Of a stretch of 64,000 nt of DNA, positions 6,002 through 59,291 are shown one piece after another. Position numbers and translations under genes: made by a program. The stretch lies in the NCBI RefSeq assembly GCF_016026235.1, contig NZ_CP065613.1, one strand, 5' to 3'. The DNA comes from Escherichia coli. Its GTDB lineage: Bacteria > Pseudomonadota > Gammaproteobacteria > Enterobacterales > Enterobacteriaceae. Position 1 is the first letter of the stretch. Every line of letters starts with the position of its first letter. The notes below the pieces were generated by a model. It saw only the letters and a program-made list of their open reading frames with translations, did not search any database and was not told where the DNA came from.

Positions 6002-6496
6002 ATGGTAGATAGCAAGAAGCGCCCTGGCAAAGATCTCGACCGTATCGATCGTAACATTCTTAATGAGTTGCAAAAGGATGGGCGTATTTCTAACGTCGAG
6101 CTTTCTAAACGTGTGGGACTTTCCCCAACGCCGTGCCTTGAGCGTGTGCGTCGGCTGGAAAGACAAGGGTTTATTCAGGGCTATACGGCGCTGCTTAACC
6201 CCCATTATCTGGATGCATCACTTCTGGTATTCGTTGAGATTACTCTGAATCGTGGCGCACCGGATGTGTTTGAACAATTCAATACCGCTGTACAAAAACT
6301 TGAAGAAATTCAGGAGTGTCATTTAGTATCTGGTGATTTCGACTACCTGTTGAAAACACGCGTGCCGGATATGTCAGCTTACCGTAAGTTGCTGGGGGAA
6401 ACCCTGCTGCGTCTGCCTGGCGTCAATGACACACGGACATACGTTGTTATGGAAGAAGTCAAGCAGAGTAATCGTCTGGTTATTAAGACGCGCTAA
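6002..6496 (+). CDS. lrp: Leucine-responsive regulatory protein (AsnC family)
   Basis: ORF 5948..6496 trimmed to MVDSKKRPGKDLDRIDRNIL giving 164 aa; divergent from trxB with a long upstream regulatory region. Confidence 0.93.
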   Translation: MVDSKKRPGKDLDRIDRNILNELQKDGRISNVELSKRVGLSPTPCLERVRRLERQGFIQGYTALLNPHYLDASLLVFVEITLNRGAPDVFEQFNTAVQKLEEIQECHLVSGDFDYLLKTRVPDMSAYRKLLGETLLRLPGVNDTRTYVVMEEVKQSNRLVIKTR

Positions 6497-6630
6497 CACG
6501 GAACAGGTGCAAAATCGGCGTATTTTGATTACACTCCTGTTAATCCATACAGCAACAGTACTGGGGTAACCTGGTACTGTTGTCCGTTTTAGCATCGGGC
6601 AGGAAAAGCCTGTAACCTGGAGAGCCTTTC

Positions 6631-9600
6631 TTGAGCCAGGAATACACTGAAGACAAAGAAGTCACATTGACAAAGTTAAGTAGCGGCCGTCGCCTTCTGG
6701 AAGCGTTGCTGATCCTTATTGTCCTGTTTGCCGTCTGGTTGATGGCTGCCTTACTAAGCTTTAACCCTTCGGACCCCAGCTGGTCGCAAACGGCCTGGCA
6801 TGAACCTATCCATAATTTAGGTGGGATGCCCGGTGCGTGGCTGGCAGATACGCTGTTCTTTATTTTTGGCGTGATGGCTTACACCATTCCCGTCATTATT
6901 GTCGGCGGTTGTTGGTTTGCCTGGCGTCATCAGTCCAGTGACGAATACATTGATTATTTTGCCGTTTCGCTACGCATCATTGGCGTTTTGGCGCTCATCC
7001 TTACCTCCTGTGGTCTGGCGGCAATCAACGCTGACGATATCTGGTATTTTGCCTCCGGTGGCGTCATTGGCAGCTTACTAAGCACTACGCTACAACCACT
7101 GCTACACAGTAGCGGGGGAACTATTGCGCTGCTCTGCGTTTGGGCTGCGGGCCTGACGCTGTTCACCGGTTGGTCATGGGTGACCATTGCTGAAAAACTC
7201 GGCGGCTGGATTTTAAACATTCTCACCTTCGCTAGTAATCGTACCCGTCGCGATGATACCTGGGTCGATGAAGATGAATATGAAGATGACGAAGAGTATG
7301 AAGATGAAAACCACGGCAAACAGCATGAATCACGCCGTGCCCGTATTCTTCGCGGCGCGCTAGCGCGTCGTAAACGGTTGGCGGAAAAATTCATTAATCC
7401 GATGGGGCGGCAAACAGACGCTGCGTTGTTCTCCGGTAAGCGGATGGATGATGACGAAGAGATTACCTACACTGCACGCGGTGTGGCTGCCGACCCGGAC
7501 GACGTCCTATTTTCGGGCAATCGTGCAACGCAGCCAGAATATGACGAATACGATCCATTATTAAACGGTGCGCCAATTACCGAACCTGTCGCTGTGGCAG
7601 CTGCTGCTACCACGGCGACACAAAGCTGGGCTGCGCCGGTTGAACCTGTGACTCAGACGCCGCCTGTTGCCTCTGTTGATGTTCCACCTTCGCAACCTAC
7701 AGTAGCCTGGCAGCCTGTACCGGGTCCACAAACGGGAGAGCCGGTTATTGCTCCTGCACCGGAAGGTTACCCACAGCAGTCACAATATGTGCAGCCTGCA
7801 GTGCAATATAATGAGCCGCTGCAACAACCAGTACAGCCGCAGCAGCCGTATTATGCACCTGCAGCTGAACAACCTGCGCAACAACCTTACTACGCTCCTG
7901 CGGCGGAACAACCTGTTCAGCAACCGTATTACGCCCCTGCGCCAGAACAACCGGTGGCAGGTAACGCCTGGCAAGCCGAAGAGCAGCAATCCACTTTTGC
8001 TCCACAGTCTACATACCAGACTGAGCAAACTTATCAGCAACCAGCCGCTCAGGAGCCGTTGTACCAACAGCCGCAATCCGTTGAACAGCAGCCTGTTGTG
8101 GAGCCTGAACCCGTTGTAGAAGAGACAAAACCCGCGCGTCCGCCGCTTTACTATTTTGAAGAAGTGGAAGAGAAGCGAGCCCGTGAACGTGAACAACTTG
8201 CGGCCTGGTATCAACCGATTCCAGAACCGGTTAAAGAACCAGAACCGATCAAATCTTCGTTGAAAGCGCCTTCTGTTGCAGCAGTACCTCCAGTAGAAGC
8301 CGCTGCCGCTGTTTCTCCGCTGGCATCTGGCGTGAAAAAAGCGACACTGGCGACGGGGGCTGCCGCAACCGTTGCCGCGCCAGTCTTCAGTCTGGCAAAT
8401 AGCGGTGGACCGCGTCCGCAAGTCAAAGAGGGGATTGGCCCGCAGTTGCCACGACCGAAACGTATCCGCGTGCCAACTCGTCGTGAACTGGCGTCTTACG
8501 GTATTAAGCTGCCCTCACAGCGTGCGGCGGAAGAGAAAGCCCGTGAAGCCCAGCGCAATCAGTATGATTCTGGCGATCAGTATAACGATGATGAAATCGA
8601 TGCGATGCAGCAGGATGAACTGGCACGTCAGTTCGCCCAGACACAGCAGCAACGCTATGGCGAACAGTATCAACATGATGTGCCCGTAAACGCAGAAGAT
8701 GCAGATGCTGCGGCAGAGGCTGAACTGGCTCGTCAGTTTGCGCAAACTCAACAACAACGTTATTCCGGCGAACAACCGGCTGGGGCGAATCCGTTCTCGC
8801 TGGATGATTTTGAATTTTCGCCAATGAAAGCGTTGCTGGATGATGGTCCACACGAACCGTTGTTTACGCCAATTGTTGAACCTGTACAGCAGCCGCAACA
8901 ACCGGTTGCACCGCAGCAGCAGTATCAGCAGCCACAACAGCCGGTTGCGCCACAGCAGCAATATCAGCAGCCGCAACAGCCGGTTGCGCCGCAGCCGCAG
9001 TATCAGCAGCCACAACAGCAGGTTGCGCCGCAGCCACAATATCAGCAGCCGCAACAACCGGTTGCGCCACAGCAGCAATATCAGCAGCCGCAACAACCGA
9101 TTGCGCCACAGCAGCAATATCAGCAGCCGCAACAACCAGTTGCGCCGCAGCCGCAGTATCAACAGCCGCAACAACCGGTTGCACCGCAGCAGCAGGATAC
9201 CCTGCTTCATCCGCTGTTGATGCGTAATGGCGACAGCCGTCCGTTGCATAAACCGACGACGCCGCTGCCTTCTCTGGATTTGCTGACACCGCCGCCGAGC
9301 GAAGTGGAGCCGGTAGATACCTTTGCGCTTGAACAAATGGCTCGCCTGGTGGAAGCGCGTCTGGCTGATTTCCGTATTAAAGCCGATGTCGTCAATTACT
9401 CTCCGGGGCCGGTTATCACTCGCTTTGAACTTAACCTGGCTCCTGGCGTAAAAGCGGCGCGCATTTCTAACTTGTCACGGGACCTTGCCCGTTCACTTTC
9501 GACGGTGGCGGTGCGTGTCGTTGAAGTTATTCCTGGCAAACCCTATGTAGGTCTGGAGTTACCAAATAAAAAACGACAAACCGTTTATCTGCGCGAAGTT

Positions 9601-14258: not shown

Positions 14259-14288
14259 CTAAAAAGCGCCTGCGGGCGCTTTTTTTGT
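14259..14288 (+). terminator. Rho-independent terminator of serS
   Basis: aaaaaGCGCCtgcgGGCGCttttttt hairpin plus T-run. Confidence 0.8.
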
Positions 14289-33661: not shown

Positions 33662-33674
33662 CGGCACATTGTCG
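33662..33674. repeat. 13-bp target-site duplication, left copy, of IS4 copy 1 (cggcacattgtcg)
   Basis: Identical 13-mer directly abuts both ends of the element (second copy at 35101..35113). Confidence 0.85.
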
Positions 33675-35100
33675 TAATGCCAGTCAGTTAAGCAACTGAC
33701 TGGCTCTTTTTCGGGGCTGTGGGGTATTTCCAGGGCCTCTCCTTTACCACTCTCGGGAAGGCCCTTCCCCTTCTCGTCGGTAATTTCACAAGTTGTCCCA
33801 TACTTGCAAGATCGCGCATCAGCTCCGGTATACGTCCCGGTGAAGCGCCCTGCAATGTCATCAGCATTCTCATCACCATTCCGCATGATTCTGAGAAACT
33901 CAGTTGATTCGGCCAGTAACCTTTCAGATGTTCCGCCATTTTAATCATCTGATATCTCACCAGATTATAAGCCAGTAAGACACCCCACAGCTCTTGCTCC
34001 ACAAGCTCCGGCTTTTTACTTCTCAGCGTCAGCCTGCTCAGTTGCATCGTCTGTTTTATCTCCCTGTATCCCAGTTCGATTTCCCAGCGATGACTGTACA
34101 GATCCGCCATTTCTCCTCCGGGGAAGCGCATGGCGTCCGTCATCGACGTCAGCAGATGGCAGACTTTTCCTTTGCGCGTCACGGTCAGCAGGCGGGCTGT
34201 CACTTCATTTCCCAGTCCCGGCCACTTTTTTCGTGCCTGCGGGCTGGTTTTCAGCTTCACCAGATGATCGCCTTTACCCAGTTTTCTGAGCTCTTCATAT
34301 TGCGCTCCCTTTCTGAGAGGTATCATCCAGTGGCGGTGTTCTCCCGCCAGGCTCCAGGCATTTAACAGTCCCAGTGAGTAATAACCTTTATCCATTAACG
34401 TCAGAGTGTTATCGCCGGTTTGTTCTATAAGTTGCTCAGCAAGCTCATTTTCGCTGTTCTTCATCGTGCCGAAGGCTGCAGCCGTCAGCAGATGGCTGGT
34501 CAGTTCCATCTGGCAGACCATTTTGACCTGCGGGTAGAGCGCCGGGTTCCCGGCATGTGTCTGGCGGGGGAAGGCTGCATCGTTCTCTGGTGTATCCGGT
34601 GTGCGCCAGAACACACCATCGATGGCCAGCAGGGTCAGGCCGCACCAGTGCGGATGCGGCGTGGCGTTATGCCAGAGCTGCGCTGTTTTCGTGAACACGC
34701 GGCGGACAGCCTCACTTCCCAGGCGCTGGCGGGCCTGAATAACGGCACTGGGGGCAACGAAGGGGCGATTGCCCGGCAGCATGATGTCCAGGCGATTCAC
34801 AATCTGGTGAAGAGGTTCTTTACGCTCAAGCGCCATGCCAACAATACACCAGACCATCATTTCGAGGGGAAGACGGCGCTTGCGTAGCGTTACAGTACCT
34901 GATTCGGCAAGGCAACGAGAGATGAGTTCGGGGTCGAGGTAATCCCCCAGAGAAGTCAGTGGGTTACGCAGAGAATCGTAACGGGATACCAGATCAAGAG
35001 CCTGTCCAATGTGCATAAAAAAATCCGGAAACAAGTGAGCGTTTCCGGATTCTTACACAGCCACTGGATCGGTCAACTGATCCTTAACTGATCGGCATTA
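33675..35100 (-). mobile_element. Insertion sequence IS4, copy 1 (1426 bp)
   Basis: Imperfect 18-bp terminal inverted repeats (TAATGCCAGTCAGTTAAG / TAATGCCGATCAGTTAAG), single DDE transposase ORF, flanking 13-bp direct repeats; interrupts the aroA-loiP intergenic region. Confidence 0.93.
33688..35016 (-). CDS. insG: IS4 transposase
   Basis: 448-aa ORF (to 35034); 442 aa from the Met at [10 protein letters not shown]; recognised as IS4 family transposase. Confidence 0.9.
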
Positions 35101-35113
35101 CGGCACATTGTCG
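35101..35113. repeat. 13-bp target-site duplication, right copy, of IS4 copy 1
   Basis: cggcacattgtcg immediately after the right IR. Confidence 0.85.
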
Positions 35114-35222
35114 GCGTTTTTTTTCGGACCTTGTGAGTCATTTTGATTAATGGTAGCGTCGCTTGTCAATGTAATTTGTTGATACATAATATTTATATAT
35201 GATTAATCAACGGATGATTCAC

Positions 35223-54200: not shown

Positions 54201-55744
54201 CTGACTCGGCAGAAATGCTTAGCGGTAACAGCGATCTCAACGAAAAACTGCGTGAACGTCTGGAACAGGCGGAAGCGGAGCGTACCCGCGCTCGTGAAGC
54301 GTTGCGCGGTCACGCAGCGCAGTTGAGTCAGTACAACCAGGTGCTGGCTTCGCTGAAAAGTTCGTATGACACCAAAAGAGAGCTACTTAACGATCTGCAA
54401 CGTGAATTGCAGGATATCGGCGTGCGTGCTGATAGCGGGGCAGAAGAGCGGGCACGTATTCGCCGTGACGAGTTGCACGCACAACTGAGCAATAACCGTT
54501 CCCGCCGCAATCAACTGGAAAAAGCGCTTACATTCTGCGAAGCGGAGATGGACAACCTGACCCGCAAACTGCGCAAGCTGGAGCGGGATTACTTTGAGAT
54601 GCGCGAGCAGGTAGTGACCGCCAAAGCGGGCTGGTGTGCGGTGATGCGCATGGTGAAAGATAACGGCGTTGAGCGCCGCTTACACCGTCGTGAGCTGGCT
54701 TATCTCTCCGCTGATGATTTGCGTTCCATGTCGGATAAGGCGTTAGGTGCGCTGCGTCTGGCGGTGGCGGATAACGAACATCTGCGCGACGTGCTGCGCA
54801 TGTCGGAAGATCCGAAACGTCCGGAGCGTAAAATTCAGTTCTTCGTGGCGGTTTATCAGCATCTGCGTGAACGTATTCGTCAGGATATTATTCGTACCGA
54901 TGATCCGGTGGAAGCTATCGAACAGATGGAGATCGAACTTAGCCGTCTGACCGAAGAATTAACCTCCCGTGAACAGAAACTGGCGATCAGTTCCCGCAGC
55001 GTGGCGAACATCATTCGCAAAACCATTCAGCGCGAGCAGAACCGTATCCGTATGCTCAACCAGGGGTTGCAGAACGTATCGTTTGGCCAGGTGAACAGCG
55101 TACGTCTGAACGTGAACGTACGTGAAACGCACGCCATGCTGCTGAATGTGCTCTCTGAACAGCACGAGCAGCATCAGGATCTGTTTAACAGCAACCGCCT
55201 GACCTTCTCAGAAGCGCTGGCGAAACTGTATCAACGTCTTAACCCGCAGATTGATATGGGGCAGCGCACGCCGCAGACCATTGGCGAAGAACTGCTGGAT
55301 TACCGCAACTATCTGGAAATGGAAGTTGAGGTTAACCGTGGTTCCGATGGCTGGTTGCGCGCAGAGTCTGGTGCATTGTCGACCGGTGAGGCGATTGGTA
55401 CCGGTATGTCGATTCTGGTGATGGTGGTACAAAGCTGGGAAGATGAATCTCGCCGCCTGCGCGGTAAAGATATCTCTCCTTGCCGCCTGCTGTTCCTCGA
55501 TGAAGCCGCGCGACTGGATGCTCGTTCTATCGCCACGCTGTTTGAATTGTGTGAACGTTTGCAAATGCAGCTCATCATCGCAGCGCCGGAAAATATCAGT
55601 CCGGAAAAAGGCACCACCTATAAACTGGTACGTAAAGTCTTCCAGAATACCGAACATGTTCACGTCGTCGGCCTGCGAGGATTTGCGCCGCAACTCCCTG
55701 AAACGCTTCCAGGAAGTGACGAAGCGCCTTCCCAGGCGAGTTAA
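51284..55744 (+). CDS. mukB: Chromosome partition protein MukB (SMC-like condensin)
   Basis: 1486-aa ORF, N-terminal Walker [10 protein letters not shown], long coiled coil, C-terminal head. Confidence 0.97.
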
Positions 55745-55748
55745 AATG

Positions 55749-55780
55749 AAGGCGGCAGCAATGCCGCCTTTTCTTTTTCC
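55749..55780 (+). terminator. Rho-independent terminator of mukB
   Basis: GGCGGCAGCAATGCCGCC hairpin followed by ttttcttttt; lies upstream of the IS4 insertion point and is intact. Confidence 0.75.
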
Positions 55781-55809
55781 GAAAACTCCGTTTCTGCACT
55801 AAAAAAGTG

Positions 55810-55822
55810 GCACATTACGGCG
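55810..55822. repeat. 13-bp target-site duplication, left copy, of IS4 copy 2 (gcacattacggcg)
   Basis: Identical 13-mer at 57249..57261 directly after the right IR. Confidence 0.85.
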
Positions 55823-57248
55823 TAATGCCAGTCAGTTAAGCAACTGACTGGCTCTTTTTCGGGGCTGTGGGGTATTTCCAGGGCCTCTCCTTTACCACTC
55901 TCGGGAAGGCCCTTCCCCTTCTCGTCGGTAATTTCACAAGTTGTCCCATACTTGCAAGATCGCGCATCAGCTCCGGTATACGTCCCGGTGAAGCGCCCTG
56001 CAATGTCATCAGCATTCTCATCACCATTCCGCATGATTCTGAGAAACTCAGTTGATTCGGCCAGTAACCTTTCAGATGTTCCGCCATTTTAATCATCTGA
56101 TATCTCACCAGATTATAAGCCAGTAAGACACCCCACAGCTCTTGCTCCACAAGCTCCGGCTTTTTACTTCTCAGCGTCAGCCTGCTCAGTTGCATCGTCT
56201 GTTTTATCTCCCTGTATCCCAGTTCGATTTCCCAGCGATGACTGTACAGATCCGCCATTTCTCCTCCGGGGAAGCGCATGGCGTCCGTCATCGACGTCAG
56301 CAGATGGCAGACTTTTCCTTTGCGCGTCACGGTCAGCAGGCGGGCTGTCACTTCATTTCCCAGTCCCGGCCACTTTTTTCGTGCCTGCGGGCTGGTTTTC
56401 AGCTTCACCAGATGATCGCCTTTACCCAGTTTTCTGAGCTCTTCATATTGCGCTCCCTTTCTGAGAGGTATCATCCAGTGGCGGTGTTCTCCCGCCAGGC
56501 TCCAGGCATTTAACAGTCCCAGTGAGTAATAACCTTTATCCATTAACGTCAGAGTGTTATCGCCGGTTTGTTCTATAAGTTGCTCAGCAAGCTCATTTTC
56601 GCTGTTCTTCATCGTGCCGAAGGCTGCAGCCGTCAGCAGATGGCTGGTCAGTTCCATCTGGCAGACCATTTTGACCTGCGGGTAGAGCGCCGGGTTCCCG
56701 GCATGTGTCTGGCGGGGGAAGGCTGCATCGTTCTCTGGTGTATCCGGTGTGCGCCAGAACACACCATCGATGGCCAGCAGGGTCAGGCCGCACCAGTGCG
56801 GATGCGGCGTGGCGTTATGCCAGAGCTGCGCTGTTTTCGTGAACACGCGGCGGACAGCCTCACTTCCCAGGCGCTGGCGGGCCTGAATAACGGCACTGGG
56901 GGCAACGAAGGGGCGATTGCCCGGCAGCATGATGTCCAGGCGATTCACAATCTGGTGAAGAGGTTCTTTACGCTCAAGCGCCATGCCAACAATACACCAG
57001 ACCATCATTTCGAGGGGAAGACGGCGCTTGCGTAGCGTTACAGTACCTGATTCGGCAAGGCAACGAGAGATGAGTTCGGGGTCGAGGTAATCCCCCAGAG
57101 AAGTCAGTGGGTTACGCAGAGAATCGTAACGGGATACCAGATCAAGAGCCTGTCCAATGTGCATAAAAAAATCCGGAAACAAGTGAGCGTTTCCGGATTC
57201 TTACACAGCCACTGGATCGGTCAACTGATCCTTAACTGATCGGCATTA
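55823..57248 (-). mobile_element. Insertion sequence IS4, copy 2 (1426 bp), identical to copy 1 and in the same orientation
   Basis: Same terminal IRs and identical 448-aa ORF translation as copy 1; own 13-bp direct repeats; interrupts the mukB-ldtD intergenic region. Confidence 0.93.
55836..57164 (-). CDS. insG: IS4 transposase
   Basis: Translation identical to the copy-1 transposase ORF. Confidence 0.9.
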
Positions 57249-57261
57249 GCACATTACGGCG
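57249..57261. repeat. 13-bp target-site duplication, right copy, of IS4 copy 2
   Basis: gcacattacggcg immediately after the right IR. Confidence 0.85.
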
Positions 57262-57443
57262 CGCTTTTCTTTAAACTTCTTTACATTAGGTTATGTAAAA
57301 ACGTATCGGCGTTTATATACTGAAGATAAGCCTGATGAGTAACAGGCTTGCTCGTCATACTTTCGTGAGTATTGGCGTTGTACAGGCAAGTCGTAAAATA
57401 ACAGCCTGGCTATTCAGAGTATGATAAAAACAGGGGGCAAGGG

Positions 57444-59291
57444 ATGTTGCTTAATATGATGTGTGGTCGTCGGCTGTCGGCAATCAGTTTGTGCCTGGCC
57501 GTAACATTCGCTCCACTGTTCAATGCGCAGGCCGATGAGCCTGAAGTAATCCCTGGCGACAGCCCGGTGGCTGTCAGTGAACAGGGCGAGGCACTGCCGC
57601 AGGCGCAAGCCACGGCAATAATGGCGGGGATCCTGCCATTGCCTGAAGGTGCGGCAGAAAAAGCCCGCACGCAAATCGAATCTCAATTACCCGCAGGTTA
57701 CAAGCCGGTTTATCTTAACCAGCTTCAACTGTTGTATGCCGCACGCGATATGCAACCCATGTGGGAAAACCGTGATGCTGTTAAAGCCTTCCAGCAACAG
57801 CTGGCAGAGGTGGCGATTGCCGGTTTCCAGCCGCAGTTTAATAAATGGGTAGAGTTACTGACCGATCCTGGTGTTAACGGGATGGCACGCGACGTGGTGC
57901 TCTCTGATGCGATGATGGGCTATCTCCATTTCATTGCAAATATTCCGGTCAAAGGCACTCGCTGGCTATATAGCAGTAAACCTTATGCGCTTTCAACGCC
58001 GCCGCTTTCGGTGATTAACCAATGGCAGCAGGCGCTGGATAAAGGTCAATTGCCTACGTTTGTTGCAGGACTGGCACCGCAGCATCCGCAATATGCGGCG
58101 ATGCATGAATCGTTACTGGCCTTACTCAGTGACACCAAACCGTGGCCCCAACTGACCGGCAAAGCAACGTTGCGCCCAGGGCAGTGGAGTAACGACGTAC
58201 CGGCGTTGCGCGAAATATTGCAACGCACAGGCATGTTGGACGGGGGGCCGAAAATTACTCTACCTGGCGATGACACGCCAACTGACGCGGTAGTCAGCCC
58301 ATCCGCTGTTACTGTTGAAACAGCAGAAACTAAGCCGATGGACAAGCAAACGACGTCTCGTAGTAAACCTGCGCCTGCCGTTCGTGCCGCCTACGATAAT
58401 GAACTGGTGGAAGCCGTTAAACGTTTTCAGGCATGGCAAGGATTGGGGGCAGATGGTGCTATTGGCCCGGCAACGCGTGACTGGTTAAACGTAACGCCTG
58501 CCCAGCGTGCTGGCGTGTTGGCACTCAACATCCAGCGATTGCGCTTGCTGCCAACAGAGCTTTCTACCGGGATCATGGTTAACATTCCGGCCTATTCGTT
58601 GGTCTACTATCAGAACGGCAATCAGGTGCTGGATTCGCGAGTCATTGTCGGTCGCCCCGATCGCAAAACGCCGATGATGAGCAGTGCCCTTAACAACGTA
58701 GTGGTAAACCCGCCGTGGAACGTACCACCAACTCTGGCACGCAAAGATATTCTGCCGAAAGTGCGCAACGATCCGGGATATCTCGAAAGCCATGGCTATA
58801 CGGTGATGCGCGGCTGGAACAGCAGAGAAGCGATTGACCCATGGCAGGTTGACTGGTCTACAATCACGGCCTCGAATTTACCGTTTCGCTTCCAGCAGGC
58901 TCCAGGCCCACGGAACTCGCTGGGGCGCTATAAATTCAATATGCCGAGTTCAGAGGCCATTTATTTGCATGACACGCCGAACCACAATCTGTTCAAGCGT
59001 GATACACGCGCATTGAGCTCAGGCTGTGTACGAGTGAATAAAGCTTCCGATCTGGCGAATATGCTGTTGCAGGATGCAGGCTGGAATGACAAACGTATTT
59101 CTGATGCGCTGAAGCAGGGTGATACACGTTACGTCAATATTCGGCAGTCGATTCCGGTGAATCTCTACTACCTGACGGCCTTTGTTGGTGCAGATGGTCG
59201 TACCCAGTATCGTACAGATATTTACAATTATGATCTGCCTGCGCGATCCAGCTCGCAAATCGTATCGAAAGCGGAACAATTAATCAGGTAA
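57444..59291 (+). CDS. ldtD: L,D-transpeptidase LdtD (YcbB)
   Basis: 615-aa ORF with signal peptide, peptidoglycan-binding domain and YkuD catalytic domain (SSGCVRV active-site Cys). Confidence 0.93.

Follow-up and report, generated by a model that had tools for sequence, protein, structure and literature searches.

Two complete copies of the insertion sequence IS4 lie in the same orientation in the DNA analysed here, a stretch of 64,000 nucleotides from Escherichia coli (contig NZ_CP065613.1) that is referred to as the window. The first (copy 1) is located between aroA and ycaL, the second (copy 2) in the spacer between mukB and ldtD. This raises the question of how copy 2 came to lie at this position: by transposition of its own, or by import, selection, misassembly or movement together with the first copy. 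A recent transposition, independent of copy 1, into a sequence of the mukB-ldtD spacer that IS4 prefers as a target is very probably the correct explanation. The observations behind it are the identity of the copies, the duplication at the ends, the empty site in relatives, the intact transposase, the fit of the target and the recurrence of insertions at this site.

Structure and identity of the element

The original prediction of a second, sequence-identical IS4 in the same orientation was borne out by a pairwise comparison, in which the two 1426-bp elements showed 0 mismatches (Table 1). Beyond the element, the identity between the two loci runs for 2 bp on the left and 0 bp on the right side. 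Apart from the IS4 copies and the internal repeats of ftsK and rpsA, the repeat search found no long repeats in the window. The duplication that had been proposed to surround copy 2 is present and perfect. With 13 bp and a single copy in the empty sites, it has the size of about one helical turn (11-13 bp) that is characteristic of IS4. The termini are imperfect 18-bp inverted repeats that match at 16 of 18 positions and have the form TAATGCC(AG/GA)TCAGTTAAG, as expected for IS4.

Table 1. Features of the mukB-ldtD spacer and of the two IS4 copies, with positions in the window
Feature	Position	Strand	Remarks
IS4 copy 1 with its own 13-bp duplication CGGCACATTGTCG	33662..35113 (element 33675-35100)	-	In aroA terminator hairpin; duplication at 33662-33674 and 35101-35113
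mukB intrinsic terminator, intact	55748..55778	+	Hairpin (55748-55771) and T-tract (to ~55778); itself an IS4 target in SW070919
Left target-site duplication copy GCACATTACGGCG, 13 bp	55810..55822		Single copy at empty site in K-12 and close relatives
IS4 copy 2, complete, 1426 bp	55823..57248	-	Identical to 33675-35100; 6 substitutions, 0 indels vs K-12 IS4
Terminal inverted repeat, transposase-distal end TAATGCCAGTCAGTTAAG	55823..55840		Other end matches at 16/18 positions
Terminator-like hairpin and T-run inside IS4 end, inward-facing	55827..55852	+	11-bp stem, then TCTTTTT
IS4 transposase gene (InsG-type), intact, 442 aa	55836..57164	-	ATG at 57164, stop 55836-55838
Sigma-70-like promoter match upstream of transposase start	57197..57224	-	TTGACC-16-AAGAAT with TG; consensus match only
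Terminal inverted repeat, transposase-proximal end, reverse complement TAATGCCGATCAGTTAAG	57231..57248		End comparison
Right target-site duplication copy, 13 bp	57249..57261		Perfect match to left copy
CpxR-box-like motif GTAAA-N5-TTAAA	57270..57284	-	9/10 matches; 22 bp from IS end
Two overlapping promoter-like matches for ldtD	57372..57425	+	Consensus matches only; downstream of insertion
ldtD (L,D-transpeptidase), intact	57444..59291	+	ORF, annotation, Pfam

The transposase gene is the sole ORF of copy 2 and reads towards mukB and away from ldtD. The encoded protein scores 303.8 bits against the NCBIfam profile NF033592 'IS4 family transposase' (cut-off 115), and a precomputed collection assigns PF13006 (Nterm_IS4) and PF01609 (DDE_Tnp_1) to exactly this sequence. 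As expected for a single-ORF DDE transposase of this kind, the Y(2)R(3)E(6)K motif, the signature that defines the IS4 family (PMC2266710), is found at residue 307. The length of about 1426 bp and the near-identity to the reference IS4 over the full length are those of IS4, and RefSeq labels near-identical copies as 'IS4-like element IS4 family transposase'. Since its only differences from K-12 IS4 are 6 substitutions, with no indels, and since it matches the family profile and carries the motif, the element is IS4 itself, complete and apparently functional. An ability to transpose is suggested by the intact ORF and ends, by the two identical copies and by the empty sites in relatives whose backbone sequence is 99.95-100% identical.

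Evidence for a recent and independent insertion

K-12 aligns to the window up to position 55822 and resumes at 57249 with an overlap of 13 bp, so that its uninterrupted site contains one GCACATTACGGCG; the same holds at copy 1. The presence of just one 13-mer at the uninterrupted site shows that the repeat arose as a target-site duplication and not by chance. The duplications of the two copies differ from each other, and each is matched on both sides of its element. The insertions are therefore independent, in agreement with the original claim of two separate transposition events.

The empty mukB-ldtD site is found in GCA_902503985.1, with 2 mismatches in 14.5 kb. FDAARGOS_943, the nearest complete RefSeq genome (99.95-100% identical), is without IS4 at both mukB-ldtD and aroA-ycaL. 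Over the 20.7-kb block between the two copies, no other complete RefSeq E. coli genome exceeds 99.1% identity. As near-identical relatives have empty sites, both insertions are young. The only departures of the window from colinearity with K-12 are the two IS4 copies and the number of ftsK repeats.

The formation of the duplication can be described by the mechanism of related elements. A DDE transposase of the IS4 family would introduce staggered cuts about one helical turn apart, and the repair would duplicate the bases in between, which here would be 13 bp. The underlying cut-and-paste chemistry is presumed by analogy with IS10 and IS50 of the same family.

Two further structural differences were observed in these comparisons. 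The ftsK linker region (8848-9268) contains a tandem array of 39-bp repeats, of which 8 registers were found; its repeat alignment and number are unlike those of K-12, and it is the only non-IS structural difference of the window from K-12. FDAARGOS_943 carries an IS2 interrupted by an IS5-family element (NZ_CP065615.1, locus 6058-8306), about 55 bp downstream of the aroA-ycaL IS4 target and equivalent to ~35153-35157 in the window.

Target preference of IS4

The mukB-ldtD target reads AAAAGTG-GCACATTACGGCG-CGCTTTT, and the complete 27-bp site is AAAAGTGGCACATTACGGCGCGCTTTT. It has the conserved A-run and T-run arms of IS4 targets, the form of which is an A-run, 3 bp, a GC-rich and partly palindromic core of 11-14 bp with an AT-rich centre, 3 bp, and a T-run. 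Ten further complete IS4 insertions with an identical transposase have duplications of 11-14 bp, and almost all of their targets consist of an A-run, a GC-rich palindrome and a T-run, e.g. AAAAAATGGCGCCGATGGGCGCCATTTTT and AAAAAACCGGAGTCTGTGCTCCGGTTTTTT. Many of these targets fold at -14 to -20 kcal/mol and thus resemble bidirectional intrinsic terminators. Compared with these typical values, the mukB-ldtD core forms a weak hairpin of -7.7 kcal/mol. Due to this weakly palindromic core, the score of the site is owed mainly to its A/T arms and its GC composition.

For a quantitative description of this preference, the IS4 terminal 20-mer was scanned in one genome per species, which resulted in 115 non-redundant outside flanks belonging to many genera of gammaproteobacteria. 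In 86-100 of these 115 flanks, a T is present at positions 17-19 after the IS end, following a GC-rich and often palindromic stretch. The old IS4 target consensus from the literature of the 1980s, AAA-N20-TTT, is in agreement with this rule derived from the data. A scoring matrix was built from the 115 flanks, all of which stem from other species and none of which is a site of the window, and was applied symmetrically to both arms. The window was scanned with both IS4 copies removed, leaving about 61,000 positions. Here, the mukB-ldtD site ranks 2nd, the mukB terminator 3rd and the aroA-ycaL site 5th. In shuffled sequence, a mean of 0.07 positions per 61 kb reach the score of 20.5 of the aroA-ycaL site. 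Since both sites are top-ranked, target preference is enough to explain both insertions, and the mukB-ldtD site would have been chosen for its fit to the succession of A-run, 3 bp, core, 3 bp and T-run. The terminator-like preference agrees with De Palmenaer et al., and the survey adds a quantitative measure of the bias of IS4 towards terminator-like palindromes.

The top-scoring target of the window, located at 14267-14278 just after serS (AAAAAGCGCCTGCGGGCGCTTTTTTT, score 25.5), is unoccupied in the window. The exact 20-nt IS4 terminus was found in Budvicia, Aeromonas, Pseudoalteromonas, Pseudomonas, Pectobacterium, Silvania, Dryocola and others, and all genomes with this terminus show the same terminator-like flanks. 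The adjoining 100 bp are at least 90% identical to IS4 in only about one third of the testable cases. Either these are diverged elements of the IS4 subgroup with the same terminus, or indels break the ungapped comparison.

Genomic setting and likely effect of the insertion

The positions given for the element by the original prediction proved accurate. Copy 2 begins 45 bp after the intact mukB terminator, where about 45 bp had been proposed, and ends 195 nt before the ATG of ldtD. The terminator-like hairpin in the end of the element that faces mukB would stop transcription entering from that side. On the opposite side, the promoter-like matches of ldtD and the CpxR-box-like motif stay attached to ldtD, downstream of the element. 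Matches to the CpxR box at this level are rare, with only 5 in 64 kb on both strands. Cpx control of ldtD is known (PMC4791840), and a role of the motif near ldtD is suggested by this control. The motif is a pattern match only, and the papers on Cpx control of ldtD yielded no coordinates of the ldtD promoter. An Rfam scan (E<=0.1) found no RNA family in 55500-57600, so no known sRNA is disrupted there. Situated past the mukB terminator and ahead of the ldtD promoter region, the insertion leaves every recognisable functional element uninterrupted and is therefore probably near-neutral.

Alternatively, the insertion could be adaptive, if IS4 altered the expression of ldtD, e.g. because it cuts the CpxR-box region off from the DNA further upstream or because transcription runs outward from it; the recurrence at this site would then reflect selection and not target preference alone. 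At least four independent-looking insertions with distinct alleles or duplication lengths share one orientation, the IS end lies close to the CpxR-box-like motif, and several of the carriers are clinical isolates whose names suggest carbapenem resistance. However, the target score alone already predicts the site, four events in the same orientation give only p ~0.125, and clinical isolates dominate the database. The promoter scan found no promoter-like match out of IS4 towards ldtD at the threshold used, and the promoter-like sites and the box of ldtD are untouched. In addition, the mukB-ldtD site is occupied in only 19 of 5426 complete RefSeq E. coli genomes, where a site was scored as occupied when a match covered at least 80% of the junction query. 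For these reasons, an adaptive effect on ldtD is decidedly unlikely as the explanation of this insertion. It is likewise unlikely that the repeated same-orientation insertions about 195 bp upstream of ldtD, which are seen in at least four independent lineages, were selected for altered LdtD expression and do not merely reflect target preference. LdtD is an L,D-transpeptidase able to bypass beta-lactam-sensitive cross-linking.

Copy 1 has a different setting, as it lies in the aroA intrinsic terminator (AAAACGTCGGCACATTGTCGGCGTTTTTTTT, -14 kcal/mol) and splits the stem from the T-run. The aroA-facing end of this IS4 has a terminator-like hairpin and T-run of its own, corresponding to 55827-55852 in copy 2, which could take over the function of the lost terminator.

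Recurrence of the insertion in E. coli genomes

IS4 is present in 2686 of the 5426 complete E. coli genomes, with a median of 1 place per genome and a maximum of 32. K-12 has its single copy elsewhere, between yjgZ and nanX, as had been stated in the original prediction and as is also listed by Lee et al. 2016 (Table 1, PMC5009759). The assumption that more than one IS4 copy is atypical holds relative to K-12, but not for E. coli in general, as about half of the complete genomes carry IS4. Both spacers are recurrent landing sites of IS4, and the one between aroA and ycaL is occupied in 39 of the 5426 genomes.

At the mukB-ldtD site, the examined cases P27_L1_05.20, 23CRST004, SK0189, GN02350, VL40 and CRE444 have the same left junction, orientation and target as the window. 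In contrast to the window, the duplication in these genomes, CACATTACGGCG, is 12 bp long, and their IS4 alleles differ from that of copy 2 at 1-6 positions. The duplications of 12 bp and 13 bp, together with the different alleles, indicate parallel independent hits at this site, and the insertion in the window is its own event. In VL40 (NZ_CM177011.1 1856248-1862986), a complete IS4 abuts two partial IS4 pieces in mixed orientation at the mukB-ldtD site, which looks like a nested or rearranged IS4-in-IS4 structure.

The occupation of the same site in several lineages could also mean that an IS4-bearing mukB-ldtD segment was acquired from another lineage by homologous recombination or horizontal transfer, as the flanking homology would allow allelic exchange. 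However, all other occupied examples examined differ from the window in the duplication and the allele, and the allele of copy 2 is identical to that of copy 1. Furthermore, the flanks are 99.97-100% identical to those of empty-site relatives and show no sign of an imported tract. An imported segment is hence a highly improbable source of copy 2, and a separate transposition remains the preferred explanation.

Both sites are occupied in at least 15 genomes, and the 20.7-kb block between the copies is inverted in 13 of them. In P27_L1_05.20 and 23CRST004, both sites are occupied by copies that are inverted relative to each other. The genomes with the inverted block show both reciprocal junctions, aroA-IS4-mukB(rev) and ycaL(rev)-IS4-ldtD, with the duplications swapped. 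In these genomes, recombination between inverted IS4 copies at mukB-ldtD and aroA-ycaL flipped the block. The two copies in the window have the same orientation and each is enclosed by a matching pair of duplications, so the block has not been rearranged there.

The 13 genomes with the inverted block include CRE444, the 2020S05-013 series, 488, 492, EC1908157, 31B19CPO010B and LR130532 among their names, and the loci examined were NZ_CP166764.1 4852621-4862499 and 4831000-4840000. The block comprises ycaL-cmk-rpsA-ihfB-ycaI-msbA-lpxK-...-mukFEB and lies between oppositely oriented IS4 copies at the two sites of the window. Its inversion reverses rpsA and the muk operon relative to the ancestral direction.

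SW070919 carries IS4 at aroA-ycaL with the same duplication as copy 1 of the window. A second IS4 of this genome (NZ_CM129861.1, 23738-25163) lies inside the mukB terminator hairpin with the duplication CGGCAGCAATGCC, at a position equivalent to 55755-55767 and about 55 bp upstream of the site used in the window. The mukB-ldtD spacer thus holds two distinct IS4 targets, which are those ranked 2nd and 3rd by the matrix.

Assembly and a possible movement as a unit

Identical repeats require attention to the assembly, since collapsed or polished repeats can be 100% identical, as the two copies are, and an assembler might have placed or collapsed an IS4 consensus into the spacer. However, each copy is flanked by a perfect 13-bp duplication of sequence that occurs once in relatives, a pattern that no assembler would generate. 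Both sites rank among the best IS4 targets, and complete genomes from other laboratories carry IS4 at the mukB-ldtD site. Moreover, in at least four independent short-read assemblies that share the MukB allele of the window (GCA_001907535.1, GCA_001907545.1, GCA_050054195.1 and SRR13627093), contigs of 20,772-21,191 bp break off 28-222 bp into an IS4 located directly behind mukB, while the distance between the copies is 20,722 bp. The match of these contig ends to the inter-copy distance points to a clade carrying both copies and makes an artefact very unlikely. Taking these points together, it is scarcely credible that the assembler produced copy 2.

There is next to no probability that the two copies moved together with the intervening 20.7 kb as a unit, in the manner of a composite transposon. 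Two identical direct IS copies do bracket a discrete block, but this block is colinear with K-12, thus occupying its ancestral position in the ancestral order, and is present in relatives without any IS4. A composite would share a single duplication at its outer ends; here, the outer flanks differ and each IS is enclosed by a matching duplication of its own.

A segmental duplication was also considered and was ruled out by the duplication pattern.

Implications

A recent insertion such as copy 2 can be used as a lineage marker, and the two IS4 copies explain why short-read assemblies of the clade break into contigs of about 21 kb here. As direct repeats on either side of essential genes (rpsA, msbA, lpxK, kdsB and mukFEB), the copies form a substrate for duplication, although loss of the intervening DNA would be lethal. 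Inversion of the block has already occurred in other lineages, through IS4 copies in inverted orientation at these two sites.

Comparison with known systems

The closest known counterpart is the IS4 of K-12 (insG; NC_000913.3 4502090-4503515), which shares the length of 1426 bp without indels at 99.58% identity, the 18-bp terminal inverted repeats, and one 442-aa transposase with PF13006, PF01609 and the YREK motif. A duplication within 11-14 bp and A-rich and T-rich target arms are common to both as well. The K-12 element differs from that of the window by 6 nucleotide substitutions and, in InsG, by 4 amino-acid substitutions, and it is the only copy in its genome, located between yjgZ and nanX with a 12-bp duplication, ATCTTGGTTCTG.

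Within the IS4 family, the consensus targets of IS231 and IS10 differ from that of IS4, whose arms are A/T runs about 19-20 bp apart. Like IS4, these two elements encode DDE transposases, duplicate about one helical turn of target DNA and recognise their targets symmetrically (PMC2266710).

The allele found in the window has exact counterparts elsewhere. IS4 copies with 100% identity are present on 217-kb plasmids of S. flexneri, on EIEC-type plasmids and chromosomes, e.g. CFSAN029787, and on the 277-kb plasmid CP065612 of FDAARGOS_945, and the exact transposase was found in several multi-copy genomes. Typical chromosomal IS4 copies of E. coli are 99.6-99.7% identical to that of the window. 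Hawkey et al. 2020 described an IS4 subpopulation of Shigella and EIEC and proposed its spread through pINV (PMC7373316). Compared with this allele of pINV-size plasmids, the IS4 of the window is 100% identical but chromosomal, and a plasmid of virulence-plasmid size may have been its source. In summary, copy 2 is a known element behaving as known, at a site where public E. coli genomes already show annotated IS4 insertions.
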